Shown: positions 6,111 through 63,805 of the stretch, piece by piece
How positions within the stretch are numbered: the first letter of the stretch is position 1
Layout of the letters: every line of letters starts with the position of its first letter
Virus record (IMG/VR): IMGVR_UViG_3300031712_000052
Span: 30,666-94,665 of that record
Reading direction: 5' to 3' (one strand)
DNA length: 64,000 bases
From: a virus
Taxonomy: Duplodnaviria > Heunggongvirae > Uroviricota > Caudoviricetes
Translations under genes and position numbers: made by a program
The notes under the pieces: model-generated
What the model saw: only the letters and a program-made list of their open reading frames with translations
What the model was told of the DNA's origin: nothing
Databases searched by the model: none

Positions 6111-6115
6111 ATTCC

Positions 6116-7360: not shown

Positions 7361-7364
7361 TCAA

Positions 7365-7937: not shown

Positions 7938-8167
7938 TGATTTCCGTGCCTGCATTCTTCGATGAGCTTGAGAAGATTGCTATACAAGTAGGCACCATAG
8001 AGAAGGGACTAGATGCTACCTTGGGCCACATCAAGCAGCTTAGGGGGTCGCAGGAGGTCAGTGGTAAGCTTTTCGAAAGACGGGTGAGACAGAAGTACAA
8101 GCTTATGGATGCTCTCCATAGTAAGACGAATCCAGGGGCTGGCTTGCATGAGTCTTGGGCACAGTAG
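7937..8167 (+). CDS. Small hypothetical protein. Its N-terminus, MISVPAFFDELEKIA, resembles the N-terminus of the 9076 ORF.
   Basis: 76-aa ORF whose start overlaps the upstream stop. Confidence 0.4.
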   Translation: MISVPAFFDELEKIAIQVGTIEKGLDATLGHIKQLRGSQEVSGKLFERRVRQKYKLMDALHSKTNPGAGLHESWAQ

Positions 8168-9414: not shown

Positions 9415-10210
9415 CGCTCAAGATCCTAGTAGCCGTGTCTTTGCCGCCTCGGAGCTTACGTCTTCGTGGGGGAATGACCCATTAAACTACCTGGTCAGGG
9501 TGTTCGTGGCCTTCCTGCAAACCATCTGGGAGACAGCCCCAAAAGGAAGCTTCCATTGGACCCCCCTTTCGGAGGAAACTGAACTAGTCATAACCGAAGA
9601 GAATCCTGTGCACGTGGAAACGATGGAAAAACGCCCAGCCATAGCAGTTACCCTTGGACCTACACGGTTCAATGGTAGCTCGTTGGACGATCTTGTAATG
9701 CGAGATGCCAGGAATGCTGCGGAGAAGCATACAGACCTGCTGCCTACCAACGTCACCATCAACTGCTTGTCTAGGGTACCATCTGAAGCTCGATTTCTGG
9801 CTTGGCAGAACGCTCGTATGATCTGGAGTCTTCGTAAGTTATTCATCGCAGAAAAGGGTATCCAGGAGTGCGGTCGTAAAAATGAGGTAGGATCAGTCAC
9901 CCCAGCTGGAGCTCTAGTGCTAGGAGATACAGAGGCGGAGTGGACAGTGTGTCCAGTAACCGTGCCTGTGTACTTGCAATACACAGATTTAGTCACACCA
10001 TTGAAGAGCGAATTCAATGGGCATCCAATTCACACTCTCGAGCACATCACAACCAGTTTTCGTACAAGAACGAGTGCGATTAGATCTAGCATGAATCTAC
10101 CAGAAGCATACAACCGAGTACCTGTGATGGTAGACCGTGGACTAGATACAATGAGAGGTGGACCACGACCACCTCTTAGAGGACAAATAATTCAGGAACG
10201 TAAGATCTAA
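9407..10210 (+). CDS. Hypothetical protein.
   Basis: ATG 9407 (MSNAQDPSS) overlaps the upstream stop by 8 nt. The longer ORF from 9311 is probably an artefact. Confidence 0.5.
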   Translation: MSNAQDPSSRVFAASELTSSWGNDPLNYLVRVFVAFLQTIWETAPKGSFHWTPLSEETELVITEENPVHVETMEKRPAIAVTLGPTRFNGSSLDDLVMRDARNAAEKHTDLLPTNVTINCLSRVPSEARFLAWQNARMIWSLRKLFIAEKGIQECGRKNEVGSVTPAGALVLGDTEAEWTVCPVTVPVYLQYTDLVTPLKSEFNGHPIHTLEHITTSFRTRTSAIRSSMNLPEAYNRVPVMVDRGLDTMRGGPRPPLRGQIIQERKI

Positions 10211-10226
10211 GCCCAAGGAGATCATT

Positions 10227-13200
10227 ATGGCTAGTGAACAGCTGCTTCAACCTGGCGTTACCGTCATTCAAGAGTTTCGTACTGTCAGCCCAACCATAGT
10301 GACCCCTACACTGGTTCCGTGTGCCATCGCCCCCGGATTCCAGGTAGTGCCAGCCATGGTTCTCAATGCTGCTGGCAATGATGTATTGAACTCACAAGCT
10401 GTTGTCTCTGTACCTGCAATCTTGGTAGCCGCTCTTCCGGCACCGTACACGGGTATGGACAATCTAGAGCTGAATGTGAGCATCAACAACGGACCAACTC
10501 AATCGTTCACATTCACTGCTCCTGCAGGTGCAAACCTGGACGCGGGGCAGGTGGCAGATCAAATTGAGTCCCAGTCTCCACAAGGCTTTGGCGCTTACGT
10601 GGTGGACGTCAATGGTACGTACTTCTTGCAGCTGCGTACCACCGCTACTGGTGGTGGCCAGAGCCTAAAGGTGTTGAGTGGCTCTGCAAATGCCGCTCTT
10701 GGCTTTGCGAATGACTACCAGGCATCCGGGGTCACCAACTACGACCAGACTAAGCTGCGCCTGGAGCAGCTGAACTTCCCTGATCCTCGTGGCATTATCG
10801 ACGAACTGGTTGTGGATGATGCTTCTATCAGAGCTTTCGTGAACACCGGTAAGACCTTGCTGGAGTTCCTCCGTACTCAGAGCTTCCTGCGAAACAAGAG
10901 GGACACCGTTTACACCTCTTTGGCAGATGTCTCTTCAATCCCAGTCACTGTATCGGGTCTTCAGTTTTCCTTCCAGCAAGGACAACAGGGCTCTGTGGAG
11001 CTGTACACATTCACTACTAACCCAACTACGGTGTCTGCCGTAGCTGCAGCTATGCAGGCCCTGCTGCCTGTAGGTTCTCAAGCACACATCACTGCGGTAG
11101 GAAACAAAGTTCAGATCGAAAGCGGTGCTGGTTACATCAAGATCGTAGCAGTTCCAACATCTGCAAACAGCGCTCACACCTTCTTGCACTTCGAAGATGG
11201 TGACGAAGCTTGGACACTCACAGTTGCAGATGATGGTGATGGAGATGCGACCAGTCCTCTTATAGTGGTTGGACAGGAAGTCTTTTCAGCACCTGCCGGC
11301 CATGCCGGTATTACTGGCTCTGTAGACATCAATACAGAGCTGGCCATCCACAACAAGAGCTTCCAGGTAGGGCTTGACGGTGGGCCGGAGCAGACTCTGG
11401 CCTTTGATGCTGGTCCTATCGTAGGGACGGTTGATCTAGCTATCACTGATCTGAATGGTCTTTCCATTCACTTCACCGTGAATGGATCTAACAAGACAGC
11501 CACACTTACTACACCGGCCAATATCGGTGATGTGGTATCCCAGATCAACGTACAGGCTGGGGCTGTAGTTTGCTACAAGTCTCTAAGTGATGGTGTTCCA
11601 AGTGATACGGGTACTAGACTTGCATTCCAGGTGGGTGGTGGGGTTGTAGCACCTGGTGGTGTAATCTCACTGACCTATGCTGGAGCAAGTGATGACGTAC
11701 TTTTCGATGGTTTGGGCTTTGCTTCCTATGTCACCACACCCAATGCCTCGGTGGTTTACCAGACCATCAGTCTTGCTGAGATCGTAGCACTGCTCAATGC
11801 AACTATGGGTGCTGGCTTTGCTGCCTTCAACCTATCGAATGATTTGGTGCTGTCATCCTCAATCTATGGGACAGAGTCCGAGGTACGCATTGGTCGTGGT
11901 TCTGCAAACACAGATTTAGGCTTCACGAATGACTTTGTGGCGAATGGTAACCCATTCCCACCAAAGGCCGGAGATCAAGTCTACGCCGATGGTGTGTTCA
12001 TTGGTAATGTCTCCTCTGTGGCACCAAGTGGTTACTCGACACGACTCAAGCTGGACAGAGAACTCTCATTGGGGTTCACTGCCCAGGCCATGTACATCGA
12101 GGCTATGAATATCCCAGCAACCTTGCCGGCCGATAGACCAACACCAGACTTGGTCATCGATCCCTCAGGTGCTGTTCTTATCAAGATGGAGGTCTTGCGG
12201 GATACTGAAGGATTCCCACTTACCAACGCAAGTGGAGCCTTGGTGGTCGCCTACAACGCTCTTCGTTTGGACGTTACACCACAAGCAAAGAGACCATCTC
12301 TGCTTACCTTCAGTGATATTTCTGTGCTGGAAGATGCACTGGACCCACTGACCCTGGATAACCCACTTGGCCTCATGTTCTACTTCATGATGACCAATGC
12401 TCCTGGTATCTCGGTTACTGGTATCGGTGTCAGTGCTGTAGGTGCCAATGATCCTGATGGTACCCCAGAAGCCTACACAGAAGCATTCAGCTTCTTGGAG
12501 GCCCAAGAGGTCTATGCTCTAGCTCCTGCTTCTCAGAATCCACTGGTGCACCAGTCTGGTATGGCTCACGTGCTTGCTATGTCAGAGCCTGATGCTGGCG
12601 GGGAAAGAGTGCTTCTGATTAACCCCAAGATGCCAAGTGAAGACTTGCCTGCCTTGGTGACAAGTGGTGAAGGAGATACCCTGGCAACAGCTCCTTCCGG
12701 GCACTGGTTCGATACCAAGATAGCAGCCTTGAATGCGGATGTTCTGGCACAACAGATCAACCCAACTGGTACCATTCCAGCAAGTGTGGGTCTGTACCTG
12801 CAACTAGCAACTAGTGCTCAGCACTACAACATTGCTCAGATCTCAGGAACCCGTGTGTTGATCAGGGATGCCTTTGCTCCTGGGGAAAATGATGATGGGT
12901 TCTACTCACAGAACTCTCCCCCATTTTCGGAGGAGTTGATTGGAGTCGGATTCACCGTCTATGTTCGTGGAACACCACTGCTGACCACAACTGGGCTGCC
13001 GGACTTCGATAGGATTGCAGCCGCTTACCAGAAGCTGGGTCAGACCTACGGCAATCGTCGTGTGGTTATGACGGCCCCTGAGAAGACTGCATCCATCTTG
13101 GATGGCGTGGAGATAGAGATTCCTGGTTACTACATCAATGCGGCAATCGCCGGAATGGTGGGACAGTTGCCTCCGCAACAGGGCTTCACCAACTACCCAA

Positions 13201-13643
13201 TCGCGGGATTCACAAGAGTCCTGGGTTCGAATGATGTCTTCAGCCGCTCTCAGATGAACGTAGGCGCGGCTGGAGGTACCTACTGGGTGGTACAAGAAAC
13301 AGCAGGTGCTCCACTCACAACCAGAATGCAGGTCACAACCGACCTGACAAGCATCGAGACTCGTGAGTTCTCTATCACAAGAATCGTGGACTTCGTAGCA
13401 AAGTTCATGCGGGTTGGACTTAGGAACTTCATTGGTCGCTTCAACATCACTCAGCCATTCCTGGATACCCTCTCCACCGTGGTCCAAGGACAACTTGGAT
13501 TCCTACGTGAGGCAGGTATCTTGGTGGGCGGAGATTTGAACAACGTGGTGCAGGACTCAAGTGCTCCTGATAGCGTGTTGATCGATGTCACTCTGGATGT
13601 TCCGTATCCCTGCAACTACATCCGACTGACGCTTGTGATTTAG
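10227..13643 (+). CDS. Very large 1138-aa putative virion structural protein.
   Basis: AAGGAG RBS. Composition is Thr/Ser/Gly/Ala-rich and beta-like with no repeats. No recognisable enzymatic motif. Confidence 0.6.
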   Translation: MASEQLLQPGVTVIQEFRTVSPTIVTPTLVPCAIAPGFQVVPAMVLNAAGNDVLNSQAVVSVPAILVAALPAPYTGMDNLELNVSINNGPTQSFTFTAPAGANLDAGQVADQIESQSPQGFGAYVVDVNGTYFLQLRTTATGGGQSLKVLSGSANAALGFANDYQASGVTNYDQTKLRLEQLNFPDPRGIIDELVVDDASIRAFVNTGKTLLEFLRTQSFLRNKRDTVYTSLADVSSIPVTVSGLQFSFQQGQQGSVELYTFTTNPTTVSAVAAAMQALLPVGSQAHITAVGNKVQIESGAGYIKIVAVPTSANSAHTFLHFEDGDEAWTLTVADDGDGDATSPLIVVGQEVFSAPAGHAGITGSVDINTELAIHNKSFQVGLDGGPEQTLAFDAGPIVGTVDLAITDLNGLSIHFTVNGSNKTATLTTPANIGDVVSQINVQAGAVVCYKSLSDGVPSDTGTRLAFQVGGGVVAPGGVISLTYAGASDDVLFDGLGFASYVTTPNASVVYQTISLAEIVALLNATMGAGFAAFNLSNDLVLSSSIYGTESEVRIGRGSANTDLGFTNDFVANGNPFPPKAGDQVYADGVFIGNVSSVAPSGYSTRLKLDRELSLGFTAQAMYIEAMNIPATLPADRPTPDLVIDPSGAVLIKMEVLRDTEGFPLTNASGALVVAYNALRLDVTPQAKRPSLLTFSDISVLEDALDPLTLDNPLGLMFYFMMTNAPGISVTGIGVSAVGANDPDGTPEAYTEAFSFLEAQEVYALAPASQNPLVHQSGMAHVLAMSEPDAGGERVLLINPKMPSEDLPALVTSGEGDTLATAPSGHWFDTKIAALNADVLAQQINPTGTIPASVGLYLQLATSAQHYNIAQISGTRVLIRDAFAPGENDDGFYSQNSPPFSEELIGVGFTVYVRGTPLLTTTGLPDFDRIAAAYQKLGQTYGNRRVVMTAPEKTASILDGVEIEIPGYYINAAIAGMVGQLPPQQGFTNYPIAGFTRVLGSNDVFSRSQMNVGAAGGTYWVVQETAGAPLTTRMQVTTDLTSIETREFSITRIVDFVAKFMRVGLRNFIGRFNITQPFLDTLSTVVQGQLGFLREAGILVGGDLNNVVQDSSAPDSVLIDVTLDVPYPCNYIRLTLVI

Positions 13644-13703
13644 TTAGTGTGAACTGATCCTTTCACATCACAAAACAGTATCAACTACTAACAGGAGTCA
13701 ATT

Positions 13704-14447
13704 ATGAGCTCTTCATTCTCCGACTGGTCGCCTTACGAGAAGTTCGTCCAAGATGGCATGGTGGACGGGAAGTTCCTGAATGCAGGATTCACCCTTCTTT
13801 GTGCCGGCCCACCTAGATTGGCAGCTTTGGGTGGTGGTAGCACCGCTACTGGTACAGCTGCGCTAGGTACAGCACTAACTACTGGTAGTGGGGCTGCCGC
13901 AGATCAATTGGTCTACCCAATTGGTGTCATCCAGAACGTCAACCTGTCTCATAACCGACAGTTCAACCGGGTGTTCGAAGTGGGTTCCGAGAGATCTTAC
14001 TTCATCTCCGGTCGTACTATCGGTCAGCTTGCTATCAGCCGCATCCTGTACCATGGGCCTAGCTTGCTGCGCGTACTGATGGCCTACTACTCGGATAAGA
14101 TTGGATCAACCACTCTTCCAGCCTTGTTCCCTAATGCAGGTGTAGAGGCCCTGGCAAACCCACACGATGTCATCATACCACCTGGGTATGACTACCTGTT
14201 CTTGAACCTGGCTTCGGACTTGTTCAACCAGCCTATGGGTCTGCTCATGTACGTACGTGACTCTGATCAAAAGACCTACGGTGCGGTATATCTGGAGGGT
14301 TGCTACATCCCGAACCACACATGGGCTACTGATGCTCAAGGTGTTTTGATACAGGAGTCTGCAGCTATTCAGTTTGAGCGTGCAGTACCTGTGTCAGTCA
14401 CCAACCTGACCATCCTCGGAGGAGTTGGCGGAGTACTTGGTTCATAG
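13704..14447 (+). CDS. Hypothetical protein, possibly structural.
   Basis: An AGGAG RBS lies 6 nt upstream. Confidence 0.5.
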   Translation: MSSSFSDWSPYEKFVQDGMVDGKFLNAGFTLLCAGPPRLAALGGGSTATGTAALGTALTTGSGAAADQLVYPIGVIQNVNLSHNRQFNRVFEVGSERSYFISGRTIGQLAISRILYHGPSLLRVLMAYYSDKIGSTTLPALFPNAGVEALANPHDVIIPPGYDYLFLNLASDLFNQPMGLLMYVRDSDQKTYGAVYLEGCYIPNHTWATDAQGVLIQESAAIQFERAVPVSVTNLTILGGVGGVLGS

Positions 14448-14459
14448 TAGTGTGTAGGT

Positions 14460-15968
14460 ATGCGTCTTCTTCAGCCGGCCGAAGTGCTTGAGAAGAAAGC
14501 AGCCCTACAGGCTGCTGACAAATCAGGCAGGATTCTAGCCCACAAATTCAGCAAGGTCTCTGCGGACAACTCTGGTGAGGAGCCTGCACGCAGAGACCTT
14601 GCTGGTATCATGGCGCACAAGTGGCAAGAGCACATACCTGGTGGGTTAGCGGCGGGGAAGAAGCCCTCAGATTTTCCAATTGAGGATTTGATCAAGGGCA
14701 TCACAGTAGAGATGGAACACACCAATGACCCAGCGGTGGCTTGTGAAATTGCCATGGACCACTTGGTGGAAAAAACTGATTACTACGATAAAGGTGACAT
14801 GGCTAAAGAAGTAGCAGAAAGCCTTGGCAAGGTGGAGGATGGAGCCATCACCTTGGCTAAGAAAGCAGGAGCCTTGGTCGCCCAGATGTACAAGGAGGCC
14901 GGAAACCCACTAGCCGCCATAAAGGGAGCGACAATGCCCCTACTTGGTAGGTTGGCTAAACCAATCGAGGGAGCAGCTGTAAAGGGGGTAGTTGGTGGTG
15001 CAGAGCACACTATGGGTAAGGTATTGCCCATGCGCGGTTCTGTCTCTACGCTAGAAAGCGCCAGGACTATGGCGAGTCCAGGAACCCTACGTCAGGGGCA
15101 GATACCTTCTGCGCACACCGTTGCAGACCCACAAAGGGGAGCACCTGTGCATCAACTGCTGCAAGGTGGCCAGGCTGCTCCTCAAGTGGCTGCAAGACAG
15201 GCTACAAAAGGTTTCGATCAACACCCGCTGGTTGGAAGAGTAGAACAGGCCACAAGGCCGCCGGGGAACCCTACGAGGCCACTTAACATTCCAGAGGGTA
15301 GATACGATCCAGAGACAAGACGAATTGGGGCGGATGAGTGGTTGGCTGCTAATCCTGAGAAGGCATCAGCCAATCTACGCTTGGCTAAGCAAAGAGACGC
15401 ACTGGCGGCTAAAGCAAAATCTCCAGCCACTACAGAACCATCAAAGACTTCTCCAGGAACTCTAGGACCAGCTCCTGCAGCCTCACCAGTCTACGATGCT
15501 CGAGCCCAACACCTCCTAGAGACCGGGGAGGCAATGCCAGCCGGTGCGGTGGCTCCCAATGCTCCTGGTTGGTCGGCAAGAGCACATCAGGACATTTCAC
15601 TAGCAAAGCATGTGACTCCACCTATACCCACATCCCCACATACTGGGGCTAGCATGGGTGGCAACGTAGGCTTCCGTGGAGGTTCTCCTGGAGCTGTAAC
15701 CCCTCCTGCAGGCACTCCGCCATCAGTAGGGTCTGTAGGCTCTCCAGGACCCTCTGTAAAGCGTTTTAGCATGGGTAAGGCTCTTGGGGTTGGAGCTCTT
15801 GGGGCAGGGATTTACGGGGCTACCAAGGCCATCCCATGGGCAGCAAATCAAGTAGCTGACACCAGTAGCATGCCACTGGCTTATGGTGGTGGCTGGTCAG
15901 CAACACCTTACGGTTATGGGAGCACACCATATGGGTCTGGCGTACAAACCATGGGCCCAGGTGCCTAA
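14460..15968 (+). CDS. Hypothetical protein with a Pro/Gly/Ala-rich C-terminal half ending in GY/GS repeats.
   Basis: 502-aa ORF. Confidence 0.5.
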   Translation: MRLLQPAEVLEKKAALQAADKSGRILAHKFSKVSADNSGEEPARRDLAGIMAHKWQEHIPGGLAAGKKPSDFPIEDLIKGITVEMEHTNDPAVACEIAMDHLVEKTDYYDKGDMAKEVAESLGKVEDGAITLAKKAGALVAQMYKEAGNPLAAIKGATMPLLGRLAKPIEGAAVKGVVGGAEHTMGKVLPMRGSVSTLESARTMASPGTLRQGQIPSAHTVADPQRGAPVHQLLQGGQAAPQVAARQATKGFDQHPLVGRVEQATRPPGNPTRPLNIPEGRYDPETRRIGADEWLAANPEKASANLRLAKQRDALAAKAKSPATTEPSKTSPGTLGPAPAASPVYDARAQHLLETGEAMPAGAVAPNAPGWSARAHQDISLAKHVTPPIPTSPHTGASMGGNVGFRGGSPGAVTPPAGTPPSVGSVGSPGPSVKRFSMGKALGVGALGAGIYGATKAIPWAANQVADTSSMPLAYGGGWSATPYGYGSTPYGSGVQTMGPGA

Positions 15969-16048
15969 CGATTCCTTCTTGGGCAGCCTCCACGTACTCA
16001 GCCACGTGAAGAATCTCTCCCTTCACAGGAAGAACTCAAGAGGGCCAT

Positions 16049-16092
16049 CCTCAACATCGGGATTCGGCCCCTGATGTTGAGGGTTTCTTTTG
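16049..16092 (+). terminator. Hairpin CCTCAACATC...GATGTTGAGG followed by GTTTCTTTTG.
   Basis: 10-bp perfect stem read directly, followed by a T-rich tract. Confidence 0.5.
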
Positions 16093-16416
16093 ATCAGGTG
16101 CTTCATGATGTTCTTATGGCTCTTCTGTTCCGTGTTCCTGTTTGGAACGGGGGAGTACATGTCGAAGCGTTGGTCTTTGACTCCCAGCTACTCGTTAGGT
16201 GCACTGACTTTGATCCCGTATTTAGTCAGCTCTCTCGTATGGCTACTGGCTCTTCGTGAGGGTAAAAGTCTTGTGATCGTAGGAATGTTGTGGTCTCTAT
16301 TAGCATCCCTAGCAACGGCTGTATTAGGATTGATCGTATTCCATGAACAGCTGACCAGCTACAACTACTATGGCCTTATCCTGGCCATGTTAGCTTTGAT
16401 CTTGCTAGTACGCTAA
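16090..16416 (+). CDS. Small 4-TM membrane protein, SMR/DMT-like or holin-like.
   Basis: 108 aa with four hydrophobic segments. It is the last gene of the plus block. Confidence 0.45.
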   Translation: MIRCFMMFLWLFCSVFLFGTGEYMSKRWSLTPSYSLGALTLIPYLVSSLVWLLALREGKSLVIVGMLWSLLASLATAVLGLIVFHEQLTSYNYYGLILAMLALILLVR

Positions 16417-19803: not shown

Positions 19804-21207
19804 TCATCCTCGTATTGGTGGTAATGTTAGCAGAGATGTGGCCACCTTGTCATATGCTGCTGGACCGAAAGATTTGATCCAAACTTTCTGGCCGTCAGAG
19901 AAGCGCTCGATAGTCTGCGCCACATTCTCTGGCGTGGCATGGCCTAGGTCTGTATAGTGTGGACTGTAGCCGTTGAGTACTCTTGTTCTGCTGTACATAT
20001 CTTCGTTCATGAGTGTACGTGCTACCACATCTGCATGCTTGGAATAGCCAGCATCCAAGTACTCGTCTGAGTAGGTCCACACACTCCCCCTATCTACTTG
20101 ATCTAAGTGCGTGATGGCCAGGCCATCTATGGGTAGGTCTTCGTAGCACCTATCTAGTGCATACTTGTGTAGGCTCATGTCAAAGAATCCAGTACGTAGA
20201 GCACCCTGCCATCTATTTTCCGGGTTATGCTTATCTGCAAATCTGTTTGTCTGGACACTGCTGAATGTGGGAAAGGGGCCAGGTCCGTGTCTTGTGGGGT
20301 AGGCTCGTACTACCCCTATCATGTGTAGCTTGAGCTTCATGAACGGGGCTACATTCATGATGTTCGTACCGGTGGTCTTGCTCCACGTGTTGTACGGAGC
20401 AAAGCCCCAGTCCTCATCTATCAGCACACCTTGAGCTCCTTCAAAGATGACAGCATCTGTTTCGTTGATCAATGGATCAATCATGCTCGTAGACCAGATG
20501 TTGTTGGGATTGATGGCGGAGCTCATCAGGTCAGCTATCACATCTACATTCTTGTCCATGGCCAGTACTGTGAGCCACTTGTTGTGGGTTATACGATCTT
20601 CAAAAGGCATGGGCTCAAGGATAGGTATTCTAGAGACCTCGATTCTTATCACATCCCGCAGAATTTGTAGCTTCATCCTCAGAAGGGGCGAAGATCCCAT
20701 GTGCCCCAGCAGATCTTTGGCCCGTATAGTCGTCATCTCAGAAACAACATCTCCACCCCATTCAGCCTGGGAAAGTCGTATGGTCTCTCCAAAACCTACT
20801 CCGCAGCTTCCATTTCTACTACTTCCCCTAGATAGCTCACGGATGCAATTCAAAGCTTGGTGATATGGAGTAGTGACCAAGCAGTTCTCATGTATGATCA
20901 GATTCTCCATTGGGTTTTCTACACCCAAGCTTTCCAGGTGCTTTGCTTCCGCCTGAAGGGCTATTGGGTGTATGGCTACATCCTGAGACAGGACTGTTTT
21001 AACTCCCGGCACAAGAGAGCCGCTACCGAACTGAGAGAATGTGTGGTGTCTACCATCAGGGGTCACCACATTGTGACCAGCTTGAGCTCCGCCATTGAAG
21101 CGGACCACAAGTTTGGCACCAGTATGTCGGGTAAGGAAATCAACGATGGTACCCTTACCAGAGTCGCCGAATCCTAGATCTACTACGCCGTATGCAATAC
21201 GACTCAT
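19804..21207 (-). CDS. purA-like: Adenylosuccinate synthetase family protein. This is a PurA homologue and a candidate PurZ-type enzyme.
   Basis: GFGDSGKGTIVD matches the PurA P-loop GDEGKGK, and FNGGAQAGHNVV matches GGxNAGHT. ATG 21207 overlaps the upstream stop as ATGA. Confidence 0.75.
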   Translation of the reverse strand: MSRIAYGVVDLGFGDSGKGTIVDFLTRHTGAKLVVRFNGGAQAGHNVVTPDGRHHTFSQFGSGSLVPGVKTVLSQDVAIHPIALQAEAKHLESLGVENPMENLIIHENCLVTTPYHQALNCIRELSRGSSRNGSCGVGFGETIRLSQAEWGGDVVSEMTTIRAKDLLGHMGSSPLLRMKLQILRDVIRIEVSRIPILEPMPFEDRITHNKWLTVLAMDKNVDVIADLMSSAINPNNIWSTSMIDPLINETDAVIFEGAQGVLIDEDWGFAPYNTWSKTTGTNIMNVAPFMKLKLHMIGVVRAYPTRHGPGPFPTFSSVQTNRFADKHNPENRWQGALRTGFFDMSLHKYALDRCYEDLPIDGLAITHLDQVDRGSVWTYSDEYLDAGYSKHADVVARTLMNEDMYSRTRVLNGYSPHYTDLGHATPENVAQTIERFSDGQKVWIKSFGPAAYDKVATSLLTLPPIRG

Positions 21208-21731
21208 TGATCTTTCCTTCCTGTCATAGCAAATCCCCATTTCTTCCGTTCTGCTTGTGTTTGTTGCGGGTAGAAGGAGAAGCAGTCTCTGAATGCTTCC
21301 TTCATTGCTTTCGCAGCTCTGTTATCTGGGCAATACGAGCAGATTGCAAATAGTGGTTCAGTGCAGTTGACTCCGTAGTTCAAACCCATCAGATACGCAG
21401 ATGATTTTATCAATAACTCATGGTGAATAGAGTTGGGGGTTTGGAATCGATCTTCCTTTGGTGTTGGGTCAATACCTACATAGAACCTGTGGTTTCGGAA
21501 GTAGTAGGCTTGAAACGCATAAGCGCACCCAATGTCTACTATGACCCTGTTGCGCGGAATGATGTTGGATAGGTGTCTGTAGATATCTATGAAACCTACA
21601 AAGGTGGGGTCTATGTCTCCATGATCTTCGATTTGGGCCCACACCCTTTTGAACTCCTTCGGGTATGCTTTGCATATCTTCTTCAGAAGAGTAGCAGTCA
21701 TTACATCGTGTCTGTGTTGCTTTTTTGACAT
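21204..21731 (-). CDS. Hypothetical protein with a possible Rossmann-like VIVDIGCAYA motif.
   Basis: 175-aa ORF. The motif match is weak. Confidence 0.4.
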   Translation of the reverse strand: MSKKQHRHDVMTATLLKKICKAYPKEFKRVWAQIEDHGDIDPTFVGFIDIYRHLSNIIPRNRVIVDIGCAYAFQAYYFRNHRFYVGIDPTPKEDRFQTPNSIHHELLIKSSAYLMGLNYGVNCTEPLFAICSYCPDNRAAKAMKEAFRDCFSFYPQQTQAERKKWGFAMTGRKDQ

Positions 21732-23019: not shown

Positions 23020-24105
23020 TTACGCTGGTAGTTCGAATGGAATGAATTTCGGTGGACCGTACATCTTCTCTACGTTCTTTCTCAGTTGATCATACACCTC
23101 CTGCGCCAAGTGATAGCGCATGTTTGGATTTGGGATTAGGCATGCTGCTACCATGCCTGTGAAGTAGCTTGGAGCTTTGGGGGTCCACCCTACTTTCTTG
23201 GCCCCTTCTACACCTTCGATCATGTTTCTCACACACTTTGCAATCATGAAGAGATCGAATCCCCCACGTGCAATTTTCTTTAGTCTGGCTTCTGGAGGAA
23301 AGAACTCCTCGTACTCTGGCACTATTGCTTTTGCATTGCTTGCCAAGGGAACCGAATAGCACCAATCGAGCAGCTTGATGCCATGGTTGGCAGGCAAGAT
23401 CAATATGTTGCTGGGGATGATGGCTGCGTGAATGTGTCCGTTTAGATGTGCCCAGATGGAGACCTCAAGTAGTCGTCTCCATATCCAAGCTATGTGCTTC
23501 CCCTCCATCCCATCTGGGAATAGGGACAACACCTTTGACAATGTGTGTGAGCCTTCCACGAATTCAAAGATGTTGGCTTGCTTGCCGTCAAGCTTGATCG
23601 AATCAATGAGTTTGGGAAGGTATTTCATGAAGTGGTCTGCATCAGGTGCTTCAGCTAGCTTCCCGAGCACAGTGGCCTCGTTCTTGATGAGGTCGGAGTC
23701 TCTTGCATCGCTCGCTATCTTGAGCACCACCTTCTTGCCGTCAAGTCGGCCGGTGTACAAGTCGGCAATGTCACCCTTTGCCAGAGGCTCAAGTTCTTCA
23801 ATGGTCTTACTTGTCTTGCGGTCCTTGAATGTGATGGTTGCCAAGTTCTTGCCGAATGTACCATCAGCTATTTTTCTTACCGCTTCTTCATGAAGTATGT
23901 TGAGGGCGGCCAATACAAGATTGGCTTCTTCTACTCCTGGATTAAGATCTGGGTGGACCATCTTGGCCATACCCTGGTACCTCTTCTTCAGCATCCTCTC
24001 TTGCGTGGCTCGAGTTGTGCCTATGCTGATGAAGAAGTCTTCGGCTCTCTTGGCTTCTTTGATCTTGTCAACGAACGGTTGTTTTGCTTTGGTCCATTTT
24101 GTCAT
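23020..24105 (-). CDS. J-domain (HPD) fused to a protein-kinase-like domain. The kinase catalytic loop is atypical.
   Basis: KRYQGMAKMVHPDLNPG is a J-domain HPD motif. VVLKI, the glutamate in IKNEATVL and the DFG-like LLDWC are present. The catalytic loop reads HAAIIPSNIL instead of HRDLKPxN. The start is uncertain at 24183, 24105 or 23997. Confidence 0.55.
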   Translation of the reverse strand: MTKWTKAKQPFVDKIKEAKRAEDFFISIGTTRATQERMLKKRYQGMAKMVHPDLNPGVEEANLVLAALNILHEEAVRKIADGTFGKNLATITFKDRKTSKTIEELEPLAKGDIADLYTGRLDGKKVVLKIASDARDSDLIKNEATVLGKLAEAPDADHFMKYLPKLIDSIKLDGKQANIFEFVEGSHTLSKVLSLFPDGMEGKHIAWIWRRLLEVSIWAHLNGHIHAAIIPSNILILPANHGIKLLDWCYSVPLASNAKAIVPEYEEFFPPEARLKKIARGGFDLFMIAKCVRNMIEGVEGAKKVGWTPKAPSYFTGMVAACLIPNPNMRYHLAQEVYDQLRKNVEKMYGPPKFIPFELPA

Positions 24106-24439
24106 GTTTACCTTGTTTCTTGGTTTCTTTCCATACTCGAGGGAAGGCAAACCATTTGTGGAACTGTCGGGCAGTGAAGTCAATCCTCCACTCTCCTGCA
24201 GCTACTGCCCAATGACCTGTCTTATCGCAGCAGTACCTCTTGTAGCACTGTGTATCTCCTACACCAACTACCTTCAGTTCCGCTTGGCCTTGGCCTTGGG
24301 CGTACAATACGAACTTGGTGGAAGCATCCCAACATTCATCTTTGGCGTAGTATGGTTCTTCGAACCTGCTATGCATTTTGGCGAATTGTTGGATGCATTG
24401 AAGAAGCTCAGGAGGAGGAAGCTCTGGGCATATCCTCAT
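24068..24439 (-). CDS. Hypothetical protein.
   Basis: 123-aa ORF. Confidence 0.4.
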   Translation of the reverse strand: MRICPELPPPELLQCIQQFAKMHSRFEEPYYAKDECWDASTKFVLYAQGQGQAELKVVGVGDTQCYKRYCCDKTGHWAVAAGEWRIDFTARQFHKWFAFPRVWKETKKQGKHDKMDQSKTTVR

Positions 24440-33137: not shown

Positions 33138-33506
33138 CTACATCGAATAGATCTTTCCGTCATCGCCCACATAAAACCATACTTCACCCATGGCTTCTGC
33201 AGACCGGGTGAGGAGTAGTTCATTATCTTCAGTAGTGAATTTCTGGCACCTATCCCAGAAGCCACAGCCGTGCCCGCACCTGGTCAAGAACAAATCGTGC
33301 CCAGCTTGTGCGTCTGGATAGCCTTTTAGTTCTTCCGCATTTTCTTCTCTGAACTTCTTGCAGTCTTCAGTAGCCTGCAGTACTGCCTCTGGTGCTATGT
33401 CTTTGATGCTGTGTAACTTCTCTAGGGGTTCACCCTCATGCTCCTCTCTTTCGTCAATGCTGGCCCACAAGGCACACGTCAGGTATGCCTGCAAGAATTC
33501 GTGCAT
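33138..33506 (-). CDS. Hypothetical protein.
   Basis: A GGAGGA RBS lies upstream of ATG 33506. Confidence 0.5.
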   Translation of the reverse strand: MHEFLQAYLTCALWASIDEREEHEGEPLEKLHSIKDIAPEAVLQATEDCKKFREENAEELKGYPDAQAGHDLFLTRCGHGCGFWDRCQKFTTEDNELLLTRSAEAMGEVWFYVGDDGKIYSM

Positions 33507-33521
33507 TCGATCTGTCCTCCA

Positions 33522-33554
33522 TTGACACAGTGCAATTAGACTGCGTCTAATTGC
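33522..33554 (+). promoter_or_regulatory. Second copy of the TTGACA-N18-TCTAAT promoter with the GCAATTAGAC-TGC-GTCTAATTGC palindrome. It is plus-oriented inside the minus-strand gene block.
   Basis: About 40/45 nt identical to 282-325. It would fire antisense into 33565-33885. Confidence 0.5.
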
Positions 33555-33564
33555 ACTGCATCAT

Positions 33565-33885
33565 CTAACCAATACGTTGGGTCACATACTGGTACACGTT
33601 GATCAGTTTCTTGGCACGCTCGGCGGCACAAGCTAATGCCCACATCTCATCATCGTAGCAAGCCGCCATACGGCAGACCTTCATGAGCTTGTGTGCTGCT
33701 TCGATCTTCTCTTTCTCTGTTACTGCTTCAAGTGACCCAGATCTTTCGATAGCTGGTCGTAATGCAGTGAGCTTGTGTTCCAAGCCCATAACTATTACCA
33801 ACCTCTTGAACTCTTGTGCAGCTTTTTCGAACTCCAGATCAAAGATGAACTGGTCAATTTCATTTTCCTGATCATCCCTGAACAC
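33565..33885 (-). CDS. Hypothetical protein.
   Basis: 106 aa. Confidence 0.45.
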   Translation of the reverse strand: MFRDDQENEIDQFIFDLEFEKAAQEFKRLVIVMGLEHKLTALRPAIERSGSLEAVTEKEKIEAAHKLMKVCRMAACYDDEMWALACAAERAKKLINVYQYVTQRIG

Positions 33886-33917
33886 TCTTACGGTGGTGCT
33901 ACCGTCTGGGTTTCTTC

Positions 33918-36179: not shown

Positions 36180-36842
36180 TTAGCAACCTCCCATCAAGAG
36201 GCCACGGGGAAGAACAGGATTCCACATAGGTAGTTCTCCTACTCCCTCGCACTTGGTGCACGTATAGCAGTCAATGTACTTGCCCTTCACCAACATGAGC
36301 CCATGGCATGTCTGGCATCTATTCGTCCAGCTCCTTTCCACATGCCAGCCTGTACCCTTGCATGGGTAGCACACTCCGATCTTTTTGCCATTCTTCGAGA
36401 ACTCCCCAGTACCTCCACATTTGCGGCACTTGTACTCGTACCTACCACCTATGCGGGCGTGGTGGAAGAGAACAGAAGACCCAAAGTTAGTTCGGCAATC
36501 GGGACAAGGTTTATACAGCTGGTGGACAGTTCTGTACCCTACTCCATGGCATTCACCGCAAGCAATGCCGTTGGTTGTAGGCCCTAGACCTTTGCCTAGC
36601 TTTGCTAGCTCATCGCCCTCTTCGGTGTGGGTGACTGTTGCTATCTCTTGCTCAACTATGGTGGTGTCGTCCTTGAGCAAGGTATAGGCTTCATTCACCC
36701 TAGCAAAGCGTTCTTTGGCTTGTGGGTGTTTGCTTATGTCTGGGTGTTCAAGCTTAGAGAAACGGCGGTAGGCAGTCTTTAGAGCATTAGCTGTTGTGGG
36801 TGTTGTCAGTTGCAGTAACTTCAGTGCTTCTACTACGTTCAT
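36180..36842 (-). CDS. dnaJ-like: DnaJ-like co-chaperone. It has a J-domain HPD motif and CxxCxGxG zinc-finger repeats.
   Basis: J-domain KLEHPDISKHPQAKERF. Zinc-finger repeats CGECHGVGY, CPDC, CRKCGGTGE, CYPCKGTGW, CQTCHG and CTKCEGVGE. Confidence 0.7.
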   Translation of the reverse strand: MNVVEALKLLQLTTPTTANALKTAYRRFSKLEHPDISKHPQAKERFARVNEAYTLLKDDTTIVEQEIATVTHTEEGDELAKLGKGLGPTTNGIACGECHGVGYRTVHQLYKPCPDCRTNFGSSVLFHHARIGGRYEYKCRKCGGTGEFSKNGKKIGVCYPCKGTGWHVERSWTNRCQTCHGLMLVKGKYIDCYTCTKCEGVGELPMWNPVLPRGLLMGGC

Positions 36843-37908: not shown

Positions 37909-38910
37909 CTGTACCTACTTCTTTGTGTCTTTAGCTATTGTTACACAGTGAATCTAGATATAACCCGAGAGCGTTTTTCACTGTACCTACTTCTTTGCTT
38001 CTCTACTCATTGTTACGTATCTTGAACCCCAGCGTGGACACTCGGCCTGAAACTGTACCTACTTCTTTGTTTCTCTACTCATTGTTGATTCTTGCGGTGG
38101 CTTGCTGTACCTACTTCTTTGCTTACGTGTACGCGAACCCAGTTAGCTATCTGTACCTACTTCTTTGCTTCTTCTAACCCGTCGATTTTGCTGTACCTAC
38201 TTCTTTGTTTCTACATTAGTTGTTACGGCGTCGTGTCCAACCCGAAAGGTGACTGTACCTACTTCTTTGCTTCTCTACGCATTGTTACTCGGGCACCGAA
38301 CTCTTCTCATCCTGTACCTACTTCTTTGCTTCTATACCCATTGTTACGACCCATGCAGCTTTCTTCGGGGTGAACCCGTGGACTGTACCTACTTCCTTGT
38401 TTCTCTACTCATTGTTACAGGGTGACCAACCTGTGTTTCCTTTGCCGCCGTCTTCTGTACCTACTTCTTTGTTTCTTGGTTATCCCGTTTGTGGCACTTG
38501 TATGTCTTCTGCCTGTACCTACTTTTTTGCTTCTTTAGCCATTGTTACTTGTCCGACGGTCACACGGCAGAAAGCAGGAAATCATCTGTACCTACTTCTT
38601 TGTTTCTCGACTCATTGTTACATCCCCAAAGGCCGTTCCCAAGCGCACCAACACTCTGTACCTACTTCCTTGTTTCTCGACTCATTGTTACGTGGCCGTA
38701 ACAATGACAGCGGCACCGAGCCGGGCTGCTGTACCTACTTCTTTGTTTCTCTACTCATTGTTACCTGGGCGTGCCGCTGGTGGCCCTGTTCAGAAAGCCA
38801 CCTGTACCTACTTCTTTGTTTCTCTACTCATTGTTACCTAGTTGCCTTTGATTCTTTGGGTAGACTGCAGTCGACTGTACCTACTTCTTTGTTTCTCTAC
38901 TCATTGTTAC
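37909..38910 (-). CRISPR. CRISPR array. It has a 36-nt repeat, 13 full copies, 3 truncated copies and 15 unique spacers of roughly 16-37 nt.
   Basis: Repeats start at 37909 (degenerate), 37981, 38053, 38105 (20-nt fragment), 38151 (20-nt fragment), 38191, 38253, 38312, 38383, 38455 (22-nt fragment), 38513, 38586, 38656, 38729, 38802 and 38875. The three copies at the high-coordinate end are identical. The strand is inferred from the polymorphism gradient and the cas operon direction. Confidence 0.9.
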
Positions 38911-38959
38911 AGCAGCGTCTAAAAGGTAAGCACTTTCGGTAAGTTAATAGGGCAATTAC

Positions 38960-39017: not shown

Positions 39018-39602
39018 TTACTGCTTGCTCAACTTCTCTTTGAACTTCTCCACCTTCTCCTCGGCCACCTCGGCTCTCTTCTCTGCCGCGAGCCTCTTTC
39101 TCTTCTCTTCCTTGAGCTGTTTCTCAAGGTCCTTGATGATTTCGTGTAGCCTCGCGGTCTCTGACTGCTTCCCACCCACTCCAACCTTAGGAGCCACTAC
39201 CTTTGACACCATCCTGGTGACTGCCTCTGTGGATGGTTTCCTACCCCTTTCCTCATACCACTGCTCAAGCTGGGTCATCATGTCCTTCTCTACACGCGAG
39301 TCGGGCGGTAGACGAATACATGTGATAGCCGACTCCACCCCATACTTCAGCACCCACTCTCTCCCAAAGCGTTCGAGGGCTGTGCCTAGCCGCTTGAACT
39401 TTGCTGGGGACCAAGAGAACTCAGTCTCCAAGCAGTCTCCAAAGGTGCCGTACTTGACTTTCCAGAGCTCATTGTCCCTGAGATTCTCACAGACGTAGTC
39501 GTAGAACTTCAGGATGAACTCATCTGGCTTGAGGAGGAAAGACCTTGCAGTGGTGATGACTGCTATGAACTTCTCTACCAATCTGTCTCCTACATTACTC
39601 AT
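39018..39602 (-). CDS. Unknown 194-aa protein, translationally coupled to the Cas12-like gene. It has a C-terminal Lys/Glu coiled-coil tail.
   Basis: Its ATG overlaps the stop of the upstream gene by 4 nt. It lies between the effector gene and the array. Confidence 0.55.
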   Translation of the reverse strand: MSNVGDRLVEKFIAVITTARSFLLKPDEFILKFYDYVCENLRDNELWKVKYGTFGDCLETEFSWSPAKFKRLGTALERFGREWVLKYGVESAITCIRLPPDSRVEKDMMTQLEQWYEERGRKPSTEAVTRMVSKVVAPKVGVGGKQSETARLHEIIKDLEKQLKEEKRKRLAAEKRAEVAEEKVEKFKEKLSKQ

Positions 39603-41275
39603 CGTGTGTCCCTTTCAGCTTTAGTCTTTGGGGGTTTCTTCCCTTTCATCTTTCCTTTGGATGCCTCGTTCAATGTCTGTTGCAACTCTTCACGTACCAG
39701 CCAATACCTGCTGTTCTGGGGCAGGTCTACCTTTTTGGCCAGGCTCAAGTCTATGATCGCATTTTCAATTGCGATGCGATCTATGTGGCCACTGTAGGTG
39801 CACTTGACACAGTTGAAGCGCCAATTCTTGAAGTCCAAGGCAGCCTCATTGAGGCTGCCACAGCTAGGGCATCGGCGGGTGTGGTAGAAGGTCTTGAACT
39901 TCTCAACCTCCACACCATGTTTGGCTGCGTCCTGGGTGACGTAGTCAACAATCTTGAACCAAGGTGCTTGGTGCACCGCCACCTTGATCCACGGGTCAAG
40001 GTCTGACTCCTCAGCTCTCTTTCGGATGTTCCTGAGCTCAGGAAGCCAGATCTTACTGCGTGTGTTTATCGCCTTGCCCACAATGCGAGCCGCTACCTTC
40101 CTGCAGAAACTGTCCACCACCTCGGCCTCATCATTGTCTAGCTTGAACCTGTTGACTTGATACATGTGCCCTTTACCAGGCACTCGAAGCTGGCTGCATC
40201 TCTGAATCTCTTTCCGTCTGGCACGAATACGCCCTCTCCTCGCAGCGAAACCATCACCAAACACCCAGAACCCCTGGCTCCTATTGAGAGCCTCCTCCAC
40301 TGTGAGAGCCACTGTGAATACCTTCAACCCACAGTGAACTATGATGTTGTTCTTCACTGCTAGCACTGGTGGCTTGGGTCGGCGGTACTGAAGGAGGACA
40401 AACCACTTATTGTCCTCACGATACAGACCCATAGTGCCTGGAGCCCAGACATCCTGAGTGGGTACAGCAGTGGCTAGGTCTTTCCTGAGGTATTCTCCCG
40501 CTGCAACTCTACTCAGAACTCCACGCACGTAGTTGTCTTGCTTGGCTTTCCTCAACCTCAAGGCCAAGTTCCACCATGTCCCATCCAAGTTCACCGATAT
40601 GTTCATGCCATCTCTGCGTGAGAACCTCCAGCCGGTAGGACGAAGCCACACAGGCCAGCTGTCCTTGATGTTCATTACCGACTCTTCACCTATGGCGACT
40701 TTCTTGAGACTCTTGGTGAATGCCTCCGCAAGTCGGCGTGACATTGCACCAGTGACGGAGGAGCTGACTTGTGGCACACGTTCCTCATCCATCCCTCCCA
40801 CCAGTTCTCTGCCCACGACCCTATAGGCGAGTGTGCCCAGCACCTCTCGCTCATCCGCTCTTGGCTCCAGCCTCACTCTCTTCTTCTTTTCAGGGTCTTG
40901 CTGGGTTGTGTCCAGGGCTGGAAGCGGCTTGTCCAGGTTGAGCCACATGCTTCGTATGGCGGCATTGCCAGCTATCCTCACCCTCTTCTGGATGAGGGTA
41001 AGTACACGAAAAAACGCTCTAGCGATTGTCCTTGGTTCTTCGAGAACCGGGGGTGCGTTTTCGATCTTCTTGCCGTTCTTGTCTTTGGGTGATACCCAAA
41101 CCTTGGGTAGCCAGGCATGCTTGCCACCTGCTACCGGAATAAAGTGTTCTCTCTTTTCCGGTACGTCACTGAGGAAAGAGATGGGATCTTTGCACCTGTC
41201 CAATGCTGTAGCTACCTCGAGTTTGAGGATGCCCAGCATCTCATGCTTTCTCTTCTCACGAGTTGCTTTGTTCAT
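39599..41275 (-). CDS. cas12-like: Compact 558-aa type V Cas12/TnpB-like RuvC nuclease with a zinc ribbon.
   Basis: RuvC-II IWLPELRNI. Zinc ribbon CPSCG...CVKC. RuvC-III GHIDRIAIENAI matches the TnpB/Cas12 HADxNAAxNI motif. The candidate RuvC-I is ISVNLDGTWWNLAL. AAGGAA RBS. Confidence 0.75.
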   Translation of the reverse strand: MNKATREKRKHEMLGILKLEVATALDRCKDPISFLSDVPEKREHFIPVAGGKHAWLPKVWVSPKDKNGKKIENAPPVLEEPRTIARAFFRVLTLIQKRVRIAGNAAIRSMWLNLDKPLPALDTTQQDPEKKKRVRLEPRADEREVLGTLAYRVVGRELVGGMDEERVPQVSSSVTGAMSRRLAEAFTKSLKKVAIGEESVMNIKDSWPVWLRPTGWRFSRRDGMNISVNLDGTWWNLALRLRKAKQDNYVRGVLSRVAAGEYLRKDLATAVPTQDVWAPGTMGLYREDNKWFVLLQYRRPKPPVLAVKNNIIVHCGLKVFTVALTVEEALNRSQGFWVFGDGFAARRGRIRARRKEIQRCSQLRVPGKGHMYQVNRFKLDNDEAEVVDSFCRKVAARIVGKAINTRSKIWLPELRNIRKRAEESDLDPWIKVAVHQAPWFKIVDYVTQDAAKHGVEVEKFKTFYHTRRCPSCGSLNEAALDFKNWRFNCVKCTYSGHIDRIAIENAIIDLSLAKKVDLPQNSRYWLVREELQQTLNEASKGKMKGKKPPKTKAERDTR

Positions 41276-41705: not shown

Positions 41706-42179
41706 CTACAACTGTACCTTTCTACTCTTACGTGGCCGGGGAGAGTAAGAGGTATGCGATGCTCTCCTACTGATGTCCATGAGCTGTCTGAGCCTTTCAG
41801 GTGTGATGTCCCTATCATTGATCAGGCCAGCTCTCCTCAAGCCTTTAGCTACCTTGGCCACAGCATTGACCTCGAGTTGTCTAACACGTTCGCGGGTGAC
41901 ACCAAGAGTGATACCTACTTCATTCAAGGTATGGTCTCTGGTGGTCAGCTTCAGTACGCATGGCTGCCCCCGCTGCTTGGTTAGGGCTGTATCCCTGGCA
42001 TCATGTGCTATGTGATACCTGCAATACTTGAGTGGGCAGATACCACTCTTGCTGAGACATTGACCATCGGTGACTTCGAAGATGTTCTCAGGGTCTATGT
42101 GGTCTGGTACTGAGTCCAGGCGTTCATTCTCTTCCACTCTATTGGCTGCAGCCAATAGACCTACTTCATCATCAATCAT
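41706..42179 (-). CDS. Sigma-70 region-4-like HTH protein, a small sigma factor or transcription regulator.
   Basis: TLNEVGITLGVTRERVRQLEVNAVAKV matches the sigma r4.2 consensus TLEEVG..GVTRERIRQIE.KAL.KL. Confidence 0.6.
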   Translation of the reverse strand: MIDDEVGLLAAANRVEENERLDSVPDHIDPENIFEVTDGQCLSKSGICPLKYCRYHIAHDARDTALTKQRGQPCVLKLTTRDHTLNEVGITLGVTRERVRQLEVNAVAKVAKGLRRAGLINDRDITPERLRQLMDISRRASHTSYSPRPRKSRKVQL

Positions 42180-47865: not shown

Positions 47866-48223
47866 CCTACTTATACCTGCTCTACCCCACTCTCTTGCCC
47901 TTCCTTACCTTTCCTCAAACAAAACGACCGGCGGAAGAAGAGTCACTCTATCCCTCACTTTCAGTAACCCCCTCACCTACTACCCTGGCTACTACAGATG
48001 TGAGACTGATTGCATAGAGGCACTGATTGCATGGGTATGTGTACTCTCTAGCGTTACATTGTAAGTGGCTTATGATCTGTTTTTAATAGATCGAGCTAAT
48101 TCCTTAATGATGTCGTGTAGTTACGTGACTAGGTCGTATTGATAGACCCCTATGTCGTGTAAGTGCGTAAAAGTACTTGCAATATGGGTGTTCTTGGTCA
48201 ATTATTAGATCTTATGAGCACCC

Positions 48224-48300
48224 ATCCTCAGTAGCCTGAGACCTTCTCACTAGCCTCTCCTCAGTAGCCTCTCCTCAGTAGCCTCTCCTCAGTAGCCTGG
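48224..48300. repeat. Tandem 14-bp repeat TAGCCTCTCCTCAG, three full copies plus partial copies, in the strand-switch intergenic region.
   Basis: Full copies at 48251-48292. Partial copies at 48226-48250 and 48293-48300. Confidence 0.7.
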
Positions 48301-63789: not shown

Positions 63790-63805
63790 CGAAAACAGAA
63801 TATAT

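Follow-up and report, generated by a model that had tools for sequence, protein, structure and literature searches.

A composite palindromic control element of uncultured peat phages with a conserved reversed copy inside a minus-strand operon

Background

In the genome of an uncultured myovirus-like phage, a 43-bp palindromic element lies reversed between two genes of a minus-strand operon and, judged from its conservation across lineages, this copy appears to be a selected and functional copy of a phage-specific control module and not a chance look-alike of a promoter. The element, here called W2, occupies positions 33522-33564 of the window, i.e. the whole 64-kb stretch of DNA that was analysed, and the other copy, W1, is located at 285-327. 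The reading that we tentatively prefer, with a confidence somewhat short of even, is that of a factor-bound operator/promoter module, of which the inverted copy would serve as an antisense or convergent control point inside the operon.

The source phage has a tail sheath gene at 10227-13643 and a major head protein gene immediately upstream of the window start; its contigs reach 133-154 kb, and a comparison with sequenced phages by DNA similarity gave no match. Genes are encoded on the plus strand from 348 to 16416, on the minus strand from 16504 to 47865 and on the plus strand again from 48327 onwards, W2 being located about 14 kb into the minus-strand block.

Results

A composite palindrome fills the gap between two minus-strand genes

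On the plus strand, W2 reads TTGACAC-agt-GCAATTAGAC-tgc-GTCTAATTGC-act-GCATCAT, its polarity being set by the TTGACAC arm. This asymmetric outer arm contains a -35-like TTGACA (33522-33527, plus), which is followed, after an 18-nt spacer, by a -10-like TCTAAT (33546-33551, plus) situated within the right arm of the core. The core palindrome GCAATTAGAC-TGC-GTCTAATTGC (33532-33554), with a 10-3-10 layout, is the presumed recognition site of a lineage-specific dimeric binder and belongs to a perfect inverted repeat, CAGTGCAATTAGAC / GTCTAATTGCACTG, that covers 33528-33558 around the 3-nt centre. The second outer arm (33558-33564), GCATCAT on the plus and ATGATGC on the minus strand, adjoins the stop codon of gene 33565-33885, and the TTGACA side adjoins the ribosome binding site of the next minus-strand gene, the Shine-Dalgarno (SD) sequence GGAGGA of which (33514-33519, minus) lies 2 nt from W2. 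In this way the element takes up the 58-nt gap from the ATG of 33138-33506 to the TAG stop of 33565-33885, with its TTGACA arm running along the plus strand, antisense to the surrounding minus-strand genes.

These data agree with the original prediction of a second TTGACA-N18-TCTAAT copy with palindrome, like the first one, that points in the plus direction between genes 33138-33506 and 33565-33885 and is followed by no plus-strand RBS or ATG: neither an SD-preceded ATG nor an ORF was found 3' of W2 on the plus strand. The same stretch contains no conserved antisense RNA and no convincing terminator, and an Rfam search around W2 gave no match. A candidate terminator on the plus strand (33892-33916), at which an antisense RNA might end, was discarded as weak (6 pairs, of which 2 wobble), and the total number of terminator matches was not above that in shuffled sequences. 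W2 itself does not qualify as an intrinsic terminator, as its stem is AT-rich (the palindrome has a GC content of 40%) and no T-run follows the stem on either strand. Two short assembled contigs of the same phage (L061 and L063) terminate within the W2 element, a repeat at which assemblies break.

The gene downstream of W2 (33138-33506, minus) encodes a 122-aa protein of PHROG 1915, a family with no assigned function, whose distant homologues are found in plasmid/ICE regions beside ArdC-N and DUF932 genes. Peptide patterns retrieved no direct relatives of this gene from IMG/VR; those used below came from the protein database and contig look-ups. The upstream gene (33565-33885, minus; 106 aa), which lies in the path of any plus-strand transcript from W2, has few homologues and is a real protein gene, its relatives keeping the C-terminus ...YVxQRIG. 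For the SPFH gene, the relatives were too remote to be informative.

W1 (TTGACAC-aac-GCAATTAGAC-gca-GTCTAATTGC-acc-GCATCAC, 285-327, plus) has a core identical to that of W2 and the same plus orientation at a distance of 33 kb, and it is co-directional with the gene that follows. It is preceded by a terminator-like hairpin after the major head protein gene (225-257, plus) and ends 21 nt before the ATG of gene 348-1082 (plus, 244 aa), the first gene of the plus-strand structural block. The 31-nt palindrome pattern occurs twice in the 64-kb window, as W1 and W2, and was not encountered in 100 shuffles. Position-weight and half-site scans, allowing up to 4 substitutions, revealed neither degenerate copies nor isolated half-sites in the window, and no further copies exist within 10 kb beyond either end, which brings the density to 2 copies per 84 kb.

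The element belongs to a family with common arms and variable cores

The core GCAATTAGAC-N3-GTCTAATTGC was recovered from 8 IMG/VR loci, from 21 metagenome loci (mostly peat or fen) and from one phage-like contig binned in a Myxococcales MAG. The complete family comprises 21 distinct instances in related uncultured peat phages; L023, L027 and L034 were removed from it as unrelated hairpins that share the core by chance. Alignment of the flanks delimits a 43-bp unit, (T)TGACAC-N3-core-N3-GCATCA, the right arm of which is the inverted repeat of TGATGC; this makes the unit a composite palindrome, one arm of which has been turned into TGACAC. The outer arms TTGACAC and GCATCA are common to the family and the cores vary. 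TTGACA is exact in 15 of the 21 instances, with ATGACA, TTGATG or TTGCTG in the others. Three lineage-specific core versions (GCAAT, TGTAC and GCCCTC) were distinguished, all of them perfect palindromes with an invariant AGAC/GTCT. The GCCCTC core is absent from IMG/VR, and a search of IMG/VR by the arms and AGAC/GTCT alone yielded no new core types, only the known sites and one chance match (L083).

With respect to the neighbouring genes, three classes of sites were discerned next to the W2 type. In class A (8 sites), the element has its TTGACAC arm on the upstream side, an SD follows 6-7 nt past GCATCA and a gene starts soon after (no clear SD at L025 and L028); the downstream genes are unrelated, comprising a structural gene (W1 type), a ResIII/DEAD helicase, a HAD-like gene and an ORFan. 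The 3 class C sites have arms TTGATGC (or TTGCTGC) and GCATCA, and are found 3' of a primase-helicase-like gene and some 125 nt upstream of co-directional small genes. Together, these make 11 distinct instances in which the TTGACAC/TTGATGC arm is upstream of, and co-directional with, the next gene, at a short distance from SD/ATG in 8 and at about 125 nt in the 3 of class C. In class B (6 instances), the element comes right after a gene of about 975 aa, of which the TGA stop sits within TTGACA, and it faces a bidirectional terminator or convergent genes.

The class B loci are L005 (4937-4979), L013 (4152-4194 and 5230-5272), L014, L017 and L018. L013 contains two remnants of the 3' end of the ~975-aa gene with one element each, 1.1 kb apart, and this duplication suggests recombination at the element. 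Other conserved palindromes (GGTACACACnGCGTGTGTACC; AATGTCACAATTTGTGACATT) are present near class B and C elements (L035 ~2985-3010, L021 ~7140-7160, L005 4878-4898) and may be further operator types in these phages.

An 8-mer, TAGATCAA, is overrepresented (12 observed versus 2.2 expected) and is found at 276, 41308 (minus), 48087, 48919 and 63609 and at class A loci, in intergenic positions ahead of genes and the tRNA cluster. It directly adjoins TTGACAC at most class A sites, and it is degenerate in L037, L057 and L073. When it was examined as an alternative promoter near the class A sites, no consistent partner hexamer emerged; it may be a phage-specific promoter or UP-like motif.

Reversed orientation is conserved and cores switch in concert

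At the position of W1, the element is present in close relatives; those at 68-71% protein identity have the same arms and spacing with another core (TGTACTAGAC-TCA-GTCCAGTACA), and more distant relatives possess only the terminator and the SD. The W2 position shows no variation within the source phage. Beyond it, the element is kept in this gap in the same reversed orientation in four lineages, which share 55-100% identity in the 122-aa protein. Homologues of this protein at 74%, 64% and 55% identity all have the element 5' of the gene, in a gap of 58-60 nt in the first two; the contig of the 55% homologue is too short to reach the upstream gene. GTGTCAA, the reverse complement of TTGACAC, always stands beside the SD at these W2-type sites and (A/T)TGATGC on the far side, beside the upstream stop codon where the sequence reaches that far. 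The cores differ: GCAAT in L066/L067, TGTACTAGAC-TCA-GTCTAGTACA in L068-70/L072, and GCCCTCAGACA-CCG-TGTCTGAGGGC (the GCCCTC version) in L082. Three further lineages keep a gap of 57-59 nt, a statement that concerns gap length only.

All 13 arm bases are identical in the four W2-type lineages, although identity in the upstream protein amounts to only 34-40% and, the SD excepted, the UTRs are different. Since arms and orientation are kept despite these diverged flanks, the arms are under purifying selection, and the reversed orientation is maintained by selection and is not an accident. The same observation bears on the view that W2 is a functionless relic, a promoter cassette that was copied backwards by recombination. 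Short repeats recombine readily in phages and several contigs break within the element, as such an origin would allow, but a relic is hard to reconcile with 13 of 13 conserved arm bases next to diverged neighbours or with a core that switched twice and was a perfect palindrome each time, and we regard it as extremely unlikely.

Metagenome 3300037551 has the TGTAC core at sites of the W1, W2 and helicase types, from which it follows that the core changes in concert across the sites of a lineage. On the evidence of the sequences compared, such concerted change implies a sequence-specific binder that acts in trans. The element has two of the traits expected of an operator, namely dyad symmetry and a core that is shared between sites and co-changes between lineages, and the operator that was originally proposed gains support from this switching of a palindromic core at several orthologous sites. 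Its antisense-oriented geometry, likewise part of the original prediction, recurs at the orthologous gap in the four lineages.

A conserved -35-type arm without a canonical -10

Exact TTGACA hexamers are present at 33522-33527 and 285-290, and at all 8 class A sites the -35-like hexamer is on the gene-distal side. Its first T is kept in 18 of the 21 instances versus 8 of 21 with a T at the mirror position of the opposite arm, an asymmetry that, at the level of sequence, is as expected for a -35. In the three regions scanned, sigma-70-like motif pairs are depleted (5 observed versus 16.1 expected, 9 versus 15.4 and 13 versus 23.6), as is TATAAT in the window (2 versus 16.5), so that a conserved perfect TTGACA stands out. 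The -10 does not follow the TAnnnT pattern at 16-18 nt downstream: TCTAAT matches TATAAT at 5 of 6 positions and has a C at position 2, the place of the essential -11 A, and a generic sigma-70 scan therefore omits W2. Depending on the core type the corresponding hexamer is TCTAAT, TCTAGT/TCCAGT or TCTGAG, the last with 1-2 extra spacer nucleotides, and no other conserved -10 was detected in either direction. As the -10 is non-canonical and variable, a conserved polar -35-type arm has been demonstrated and not a canonical sigma-70 promoter. Of the operator/promoter copy in the original prediction, the TTGACA arm thus stands as conserved; TCTAAT, which lacks the A at position 2 and changes with the core type, is not a canonical -10. 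A gene in the right direction is present at the 11 co-directional instances and absent after W2; class B elements are directed at a terminator or at convergent genes. For all promoter models, class B is the chief observation left to explain.

The module could also be read in the opposite direction, with (A/T)TGATG-N18-TCTAAT on the minus strand forming an internal promoter with a start some 8-10 nt ahead of the SD, by which the 122-aa gene would have its own regulated transcription. At class C sites the upstream arm before co-directional genes is TTGATGC, in L066/L067 TTGATGC also occupies the sense side at the W2 position, and the distance from hexamer to SD is workable. Plasmid/ICE regions with ArdC-N and DUF932 genes tend to carry early-expressed anti-restriction genes, and the occurrence of 122-aa homologues in such regions might mean that early, independent expression is needed. 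Nevertheless, the sense-side arm is ATGATGC, without TTG, in the window, L068 and L082, the -10 is as non-canonical and as poorly conserved as in the other direction, and a sense promoter offers no reason for the strict conservation of GTGTCAA at +1 to +8, which makes this reading rather unlikely.

Alternatively, the element may be an operator only, a roadblock or insulator at which the bound regulator stops the polymerase between the 106-aa and 122-aa genes, TTGACAC being part of the protein site and no transcription being initiated. The evidence for a trans-acting binder applies equally here, none of the core types has a canonical -10, and there are no genes in the TTGACA direction after W2 or the class B sites. 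A precedent exists in Cluster A mycobacteriophages, in which dispersed repressor sites stop elongation and their consensus tracks the repressor (PMC6550527). Left unexplained by a mere roadblock is the presence of TTGACAC on one arm, upstream of genes at 8 sites and never on the mirror arm; moreover, the orientation toward the oncoming polymerase at W2 is opposite to that at class B sites, where a roadblock just ahead of a terminator would be pointless. We consider this alternative unlikely, albeit one to be taken seriously.

Strand asymmetry and folding

Across the 21 instances, 99.5-100% of the cells in the core helix are paired, with changes on both sides in 6 of 10 pairs. When arms are included the strands differ: the strand TGATGC...GTGTCA has 91% of all cells and 88% of the outer-arm cells paired versus 80.5% and 70%, respectively, for the strand TTGACAC...GCATCA. 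This difference arises because the arms differ by transitions, which appear as G.U/G.T pairs in one strand and as C.A mismatches in the opposite strand. As DNA hairpins, W2 is predicted at -14.9 kcal/mol (plus) and -17.0 kcal/mol (minus), and W1 at -8.6 and -10.2 kcal/mol (plus and minus). In the sense operon RNA, W2 is predicted to form a stem of 19-20 bp that occupies the space from the stop codon to the SD; a second hairpin, within the 3' end of the coding sequence for the 106-aa protein (33568-33593, minus), lies in tandem with it.

These structures raise the question of an RNA element, the hairpin in the operon mRNA serving as an RNase III or other processing site or as a stability or translational-coupling element. 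In its favour, the minus-strand RNA of 111 nt folds at -44 kcal/mol (z = -5.5), the consensus fold of the four lineages retains both hairpins with 9 compensatory pairs, the better-pairing strand TGATGC...GTGTCA, with G.U instead of C.A, is the sense mRNA strand at W2, and the N3 positions are complementary at W2 and L066. On the other hand, at the other 17 instances the sense strand pairs worse or the element is upstream of the likely start, and structure alone requires neither identical cores across the sites of one lineage nor two exactly kept tandem G.U pairs. Taking into account also the AT-rich stem without a U-tract behind it and the lack of an Rfam match, an RNA function is decidedly unlikely.

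A further alternative is a hairpin or cruciform in single-stranded DNA, serving either a phage-encoded polymerase as an N4-like hairpin promoter or the shuffling of modules as a structure-prone hot spot of recombination. The 3-nt loop and the perfect stems of variable sequence would suit it, and for class A genes it is the template strand that forms the better hairpin; in N4, too, promoters take the shape of hairpins in the template strand, with a loop of 3 nt (PMC4496689). Close relatives differ at orthologous sites in the orientation of the central triplet (GCA/TGC, TCA/TGA), a pattern which, as far as the sequences go, resembles the hairpin-mediated loop inversion of a hairpin-prone sequence; in addition, relatives differ in gene content on both sides of W2, and the 3'-end remnants in L013 are duplicated along with the element. 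Against it, the stems far exceed those of N4 in length, the loop lacks conservation, the 84 kb examined yielded no phage RNA polymerase gene, 2 copies per 84 kb is unlike PeSL-type shuffling cassettes, and the arms are kept in sequence and not merely in pairing. A DNA hairpin as the main explanation is improbable.

Search for a regulator

Scanning 51 window proteins and 13 proteins from related loci against Pfam and PHROG produced a single clear HTH, a Sigma70_r4 match (33.8 bits) in the protein encoded at 41706-42179, for which no evidence was found that ties it to the core palindrome; the sequence searched amounts to about half of the phage genome. This 157-aa protein (minus strand), the gene of which is also present in a relative contig, combines a Cys-rich N-terminus with a stand-alone sigma-70 region-4 HTH (TLNEVGITLGVTRERVRQLE), which we take to be closely similar to the -35-reading helix of E. 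coli sigma-70. Its candidate roles are those of a sigma mimic and of a reader of the TTGACA arms.

One unconventional reading goes further: the element would be a structured, strand-specific cis-signal of a new kind in a giant-phage lineage, a perfect stem that evolves freely between invariant arms and that, extruded as a DNA hairpin or read with the sigma region-4 protein (reading TTGACA), loads polymerase without a -10, the inverted copy shutting off the early operon of the Cas12f-like CRISPR locus by head-on transcription. We hold this to be a long shot.

Other features of the window

A CRISPR-like array is located at 37909-38917 (minus), with 13 full and about 3 truncated copies of a 36-nt repeat, GTAACAATGAGTAGAGAAACAAAGAAGTAGGTACAG, and unique spacers of about 37 nt; it does not appear in the output of TRF. 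It lies directly downstream of genes 39018-39602 and 39599-41275, encoding proteins of 194 and 558 aa, the larger of which has a Cas12f1-like TNB domain (Pfam, 34.3 bits) and the PHROG annotation 'transposase'. Array and Cas12f-like gene probably constitute a compact phage-encoded type V CRISPR-Cas locus. Also on the minus strand, gene 19804-21240 encodes a protein of the adenylosuccinate-synthetase family (Pfam E = 3e-54), for which the PHROG name refers to PurZ-type enzymes; a PurZ-like rather than a PurA-like identity would imply a 2-aminoadenine genome. Two DnaJ-domain proteins are encoded at 36180-36842 and 23020-24183 (minus); a CXXCXGXG zinc-finger region is present in one, and the other is fused to a protein-kinase-like domain.

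Between the minus and plus blocks, the divergent control region contains short tandem repeats, CTCCTCAGTAGCCT, in 3-4 copies (48225-48300) and 2 copies of a direct repeat, ACTGATTGCAT (~48006-48035). At the right end of the window (63718-63878; L075 10852-20351) begins a cluster of about 18 tRNAs, within which genes for a TROVE/Ro60-like protein and a radical-SAM protein are found.

Discussion

A two-layer model

The operator/promoter module that we tentatively prefer would work in two layers. In the first, the symmetric 10-3-10 core would bind a phage-encoded, lineage-specific and probably dimeric regulator; we see the core as a regulator site because it changes in concert at several sites, next to its perfect dyad and the invariant AGAC/GTCT. 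The second layer would be formed by the outer arms, with the TTGACAC arm providing polarity, most likely as a -35-type contact for RNA polymerase. This polarity matches the downstream gene at most sites, so the module would behave like a regulated internal promoter.

Protein binding, promoter activity and an antisense or interference output of W2 are what we infer from these sequence patterns. W2 would then be a regulator-controlled antisense or convergent initiation site within the minus-strand operon. Under permissive conditions of the regulator, polymerase loaded at W2 would transcribe the plus strand into 33565-33885, and this transcription would either collide with the operon transcript or yield antisense RNA against it. 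With the regulator bound, the complex could hinder read-through into 33138-33506 and beyond.

Comparison with known systems

Overlaps of phage operators and promoters, as well as face-to-face or antisense promoters, are known from lambda (PR/PRM, paQ/oop), P22 (sar) and coliphage 186 (pR/pL). By analogy, such operator-controlled promoters and antisense or face-to-face promoter pairs would be the functionally closest known systems. As in these phages, a dyad site lies over the -35/-10 interval, several copies may answer to one regulator and one promoter would run against an operon. The present copies, in contrast, are separated by 33 kb of a genome of some 150 kb and not clustered in an immunity region, their -10 is non-canonical and inside the palindrome, invariant arms are combined with lineage-specific cores, and no regulator was identified among the scanned proteins.

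The stoperators of the L5 gp71 family in Cluster A mycobacteriophages are asymmetric 13-bp sites, about 30 per genome and nearly all in one orientation relative to transcription (PMC6550527, PMC9283540). They share with the present element a dispersed intergenic location in operons and a lineage-specific consensus, which in stoperators tracks the repressor, and they can stop elongation; they differ from it in that we found a symmetric 23-bp core in a 43-bp composite palindrome, 2 copies per 84 kb, and W2 opposite to the other sites. The PeSL (promoter-early stem-loop) cassettes of T4-like phages consist of a GC-rich terminator stem-loop beside a consensus early promoter, in many copies that lie in hyperplastic regions and are all co-directional with genes (PMC2839356, PMC4122927). 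A repeated sigma-70-like promoter with a stem-loop in intergenic spots of variable regions is common to both, and both may be substrates of modular shuffling, but the present palindrome is AT-rich, lies inside the spacer and the -10, and occurs in 2 copies per 84 kb of which one is inverted. In its symmetry, number of copies and layout, the element qualifies as neither a stoperator nor a PeSL.

N4 vRNAP promoters have a stem of 5-7 bp with a conserved purine-centred 3-nt loop at -11, and are served by a giant vRNAP gene (PMC4496689). The inverted repeat with 3-nt loop, the partly conserved and partly free stem bases and the better hairpin on the template strand of co-directional genes are similar here, unlike the stem of at least 10 bp, the variable and flipped loop and the lack of such a polymerase in the 84 kb.

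Site-specific recombination or telomere-resolvase sites, REP elements and IS200/IS605 ends were set aside as well, as their spacer length, copy number or end structure does not fit. Within the scope of the databases searched, the family appears to be undescribed, and its two-layer design, with invariant arms and a switchable core, is unusual.

Conclusions

Very little is known of how uncultured phages of about 150 kb regulate their genes, and the element provides a concrete and testable regulon marker, with few sites per genome, a specificity code of three core types and one site with a selected reversed polarity. If only a roadblock or an mRNA hairpin, it would be a well-defined but otherwise ordinary regulatory motif. 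Should the inverted copy prove to be an antisense or convergent promoter, it would constitute a conserved case of operon control by head-on transcription in a giant phage, and would also offer a route to the cognate regulator via the covariation of protein and core.
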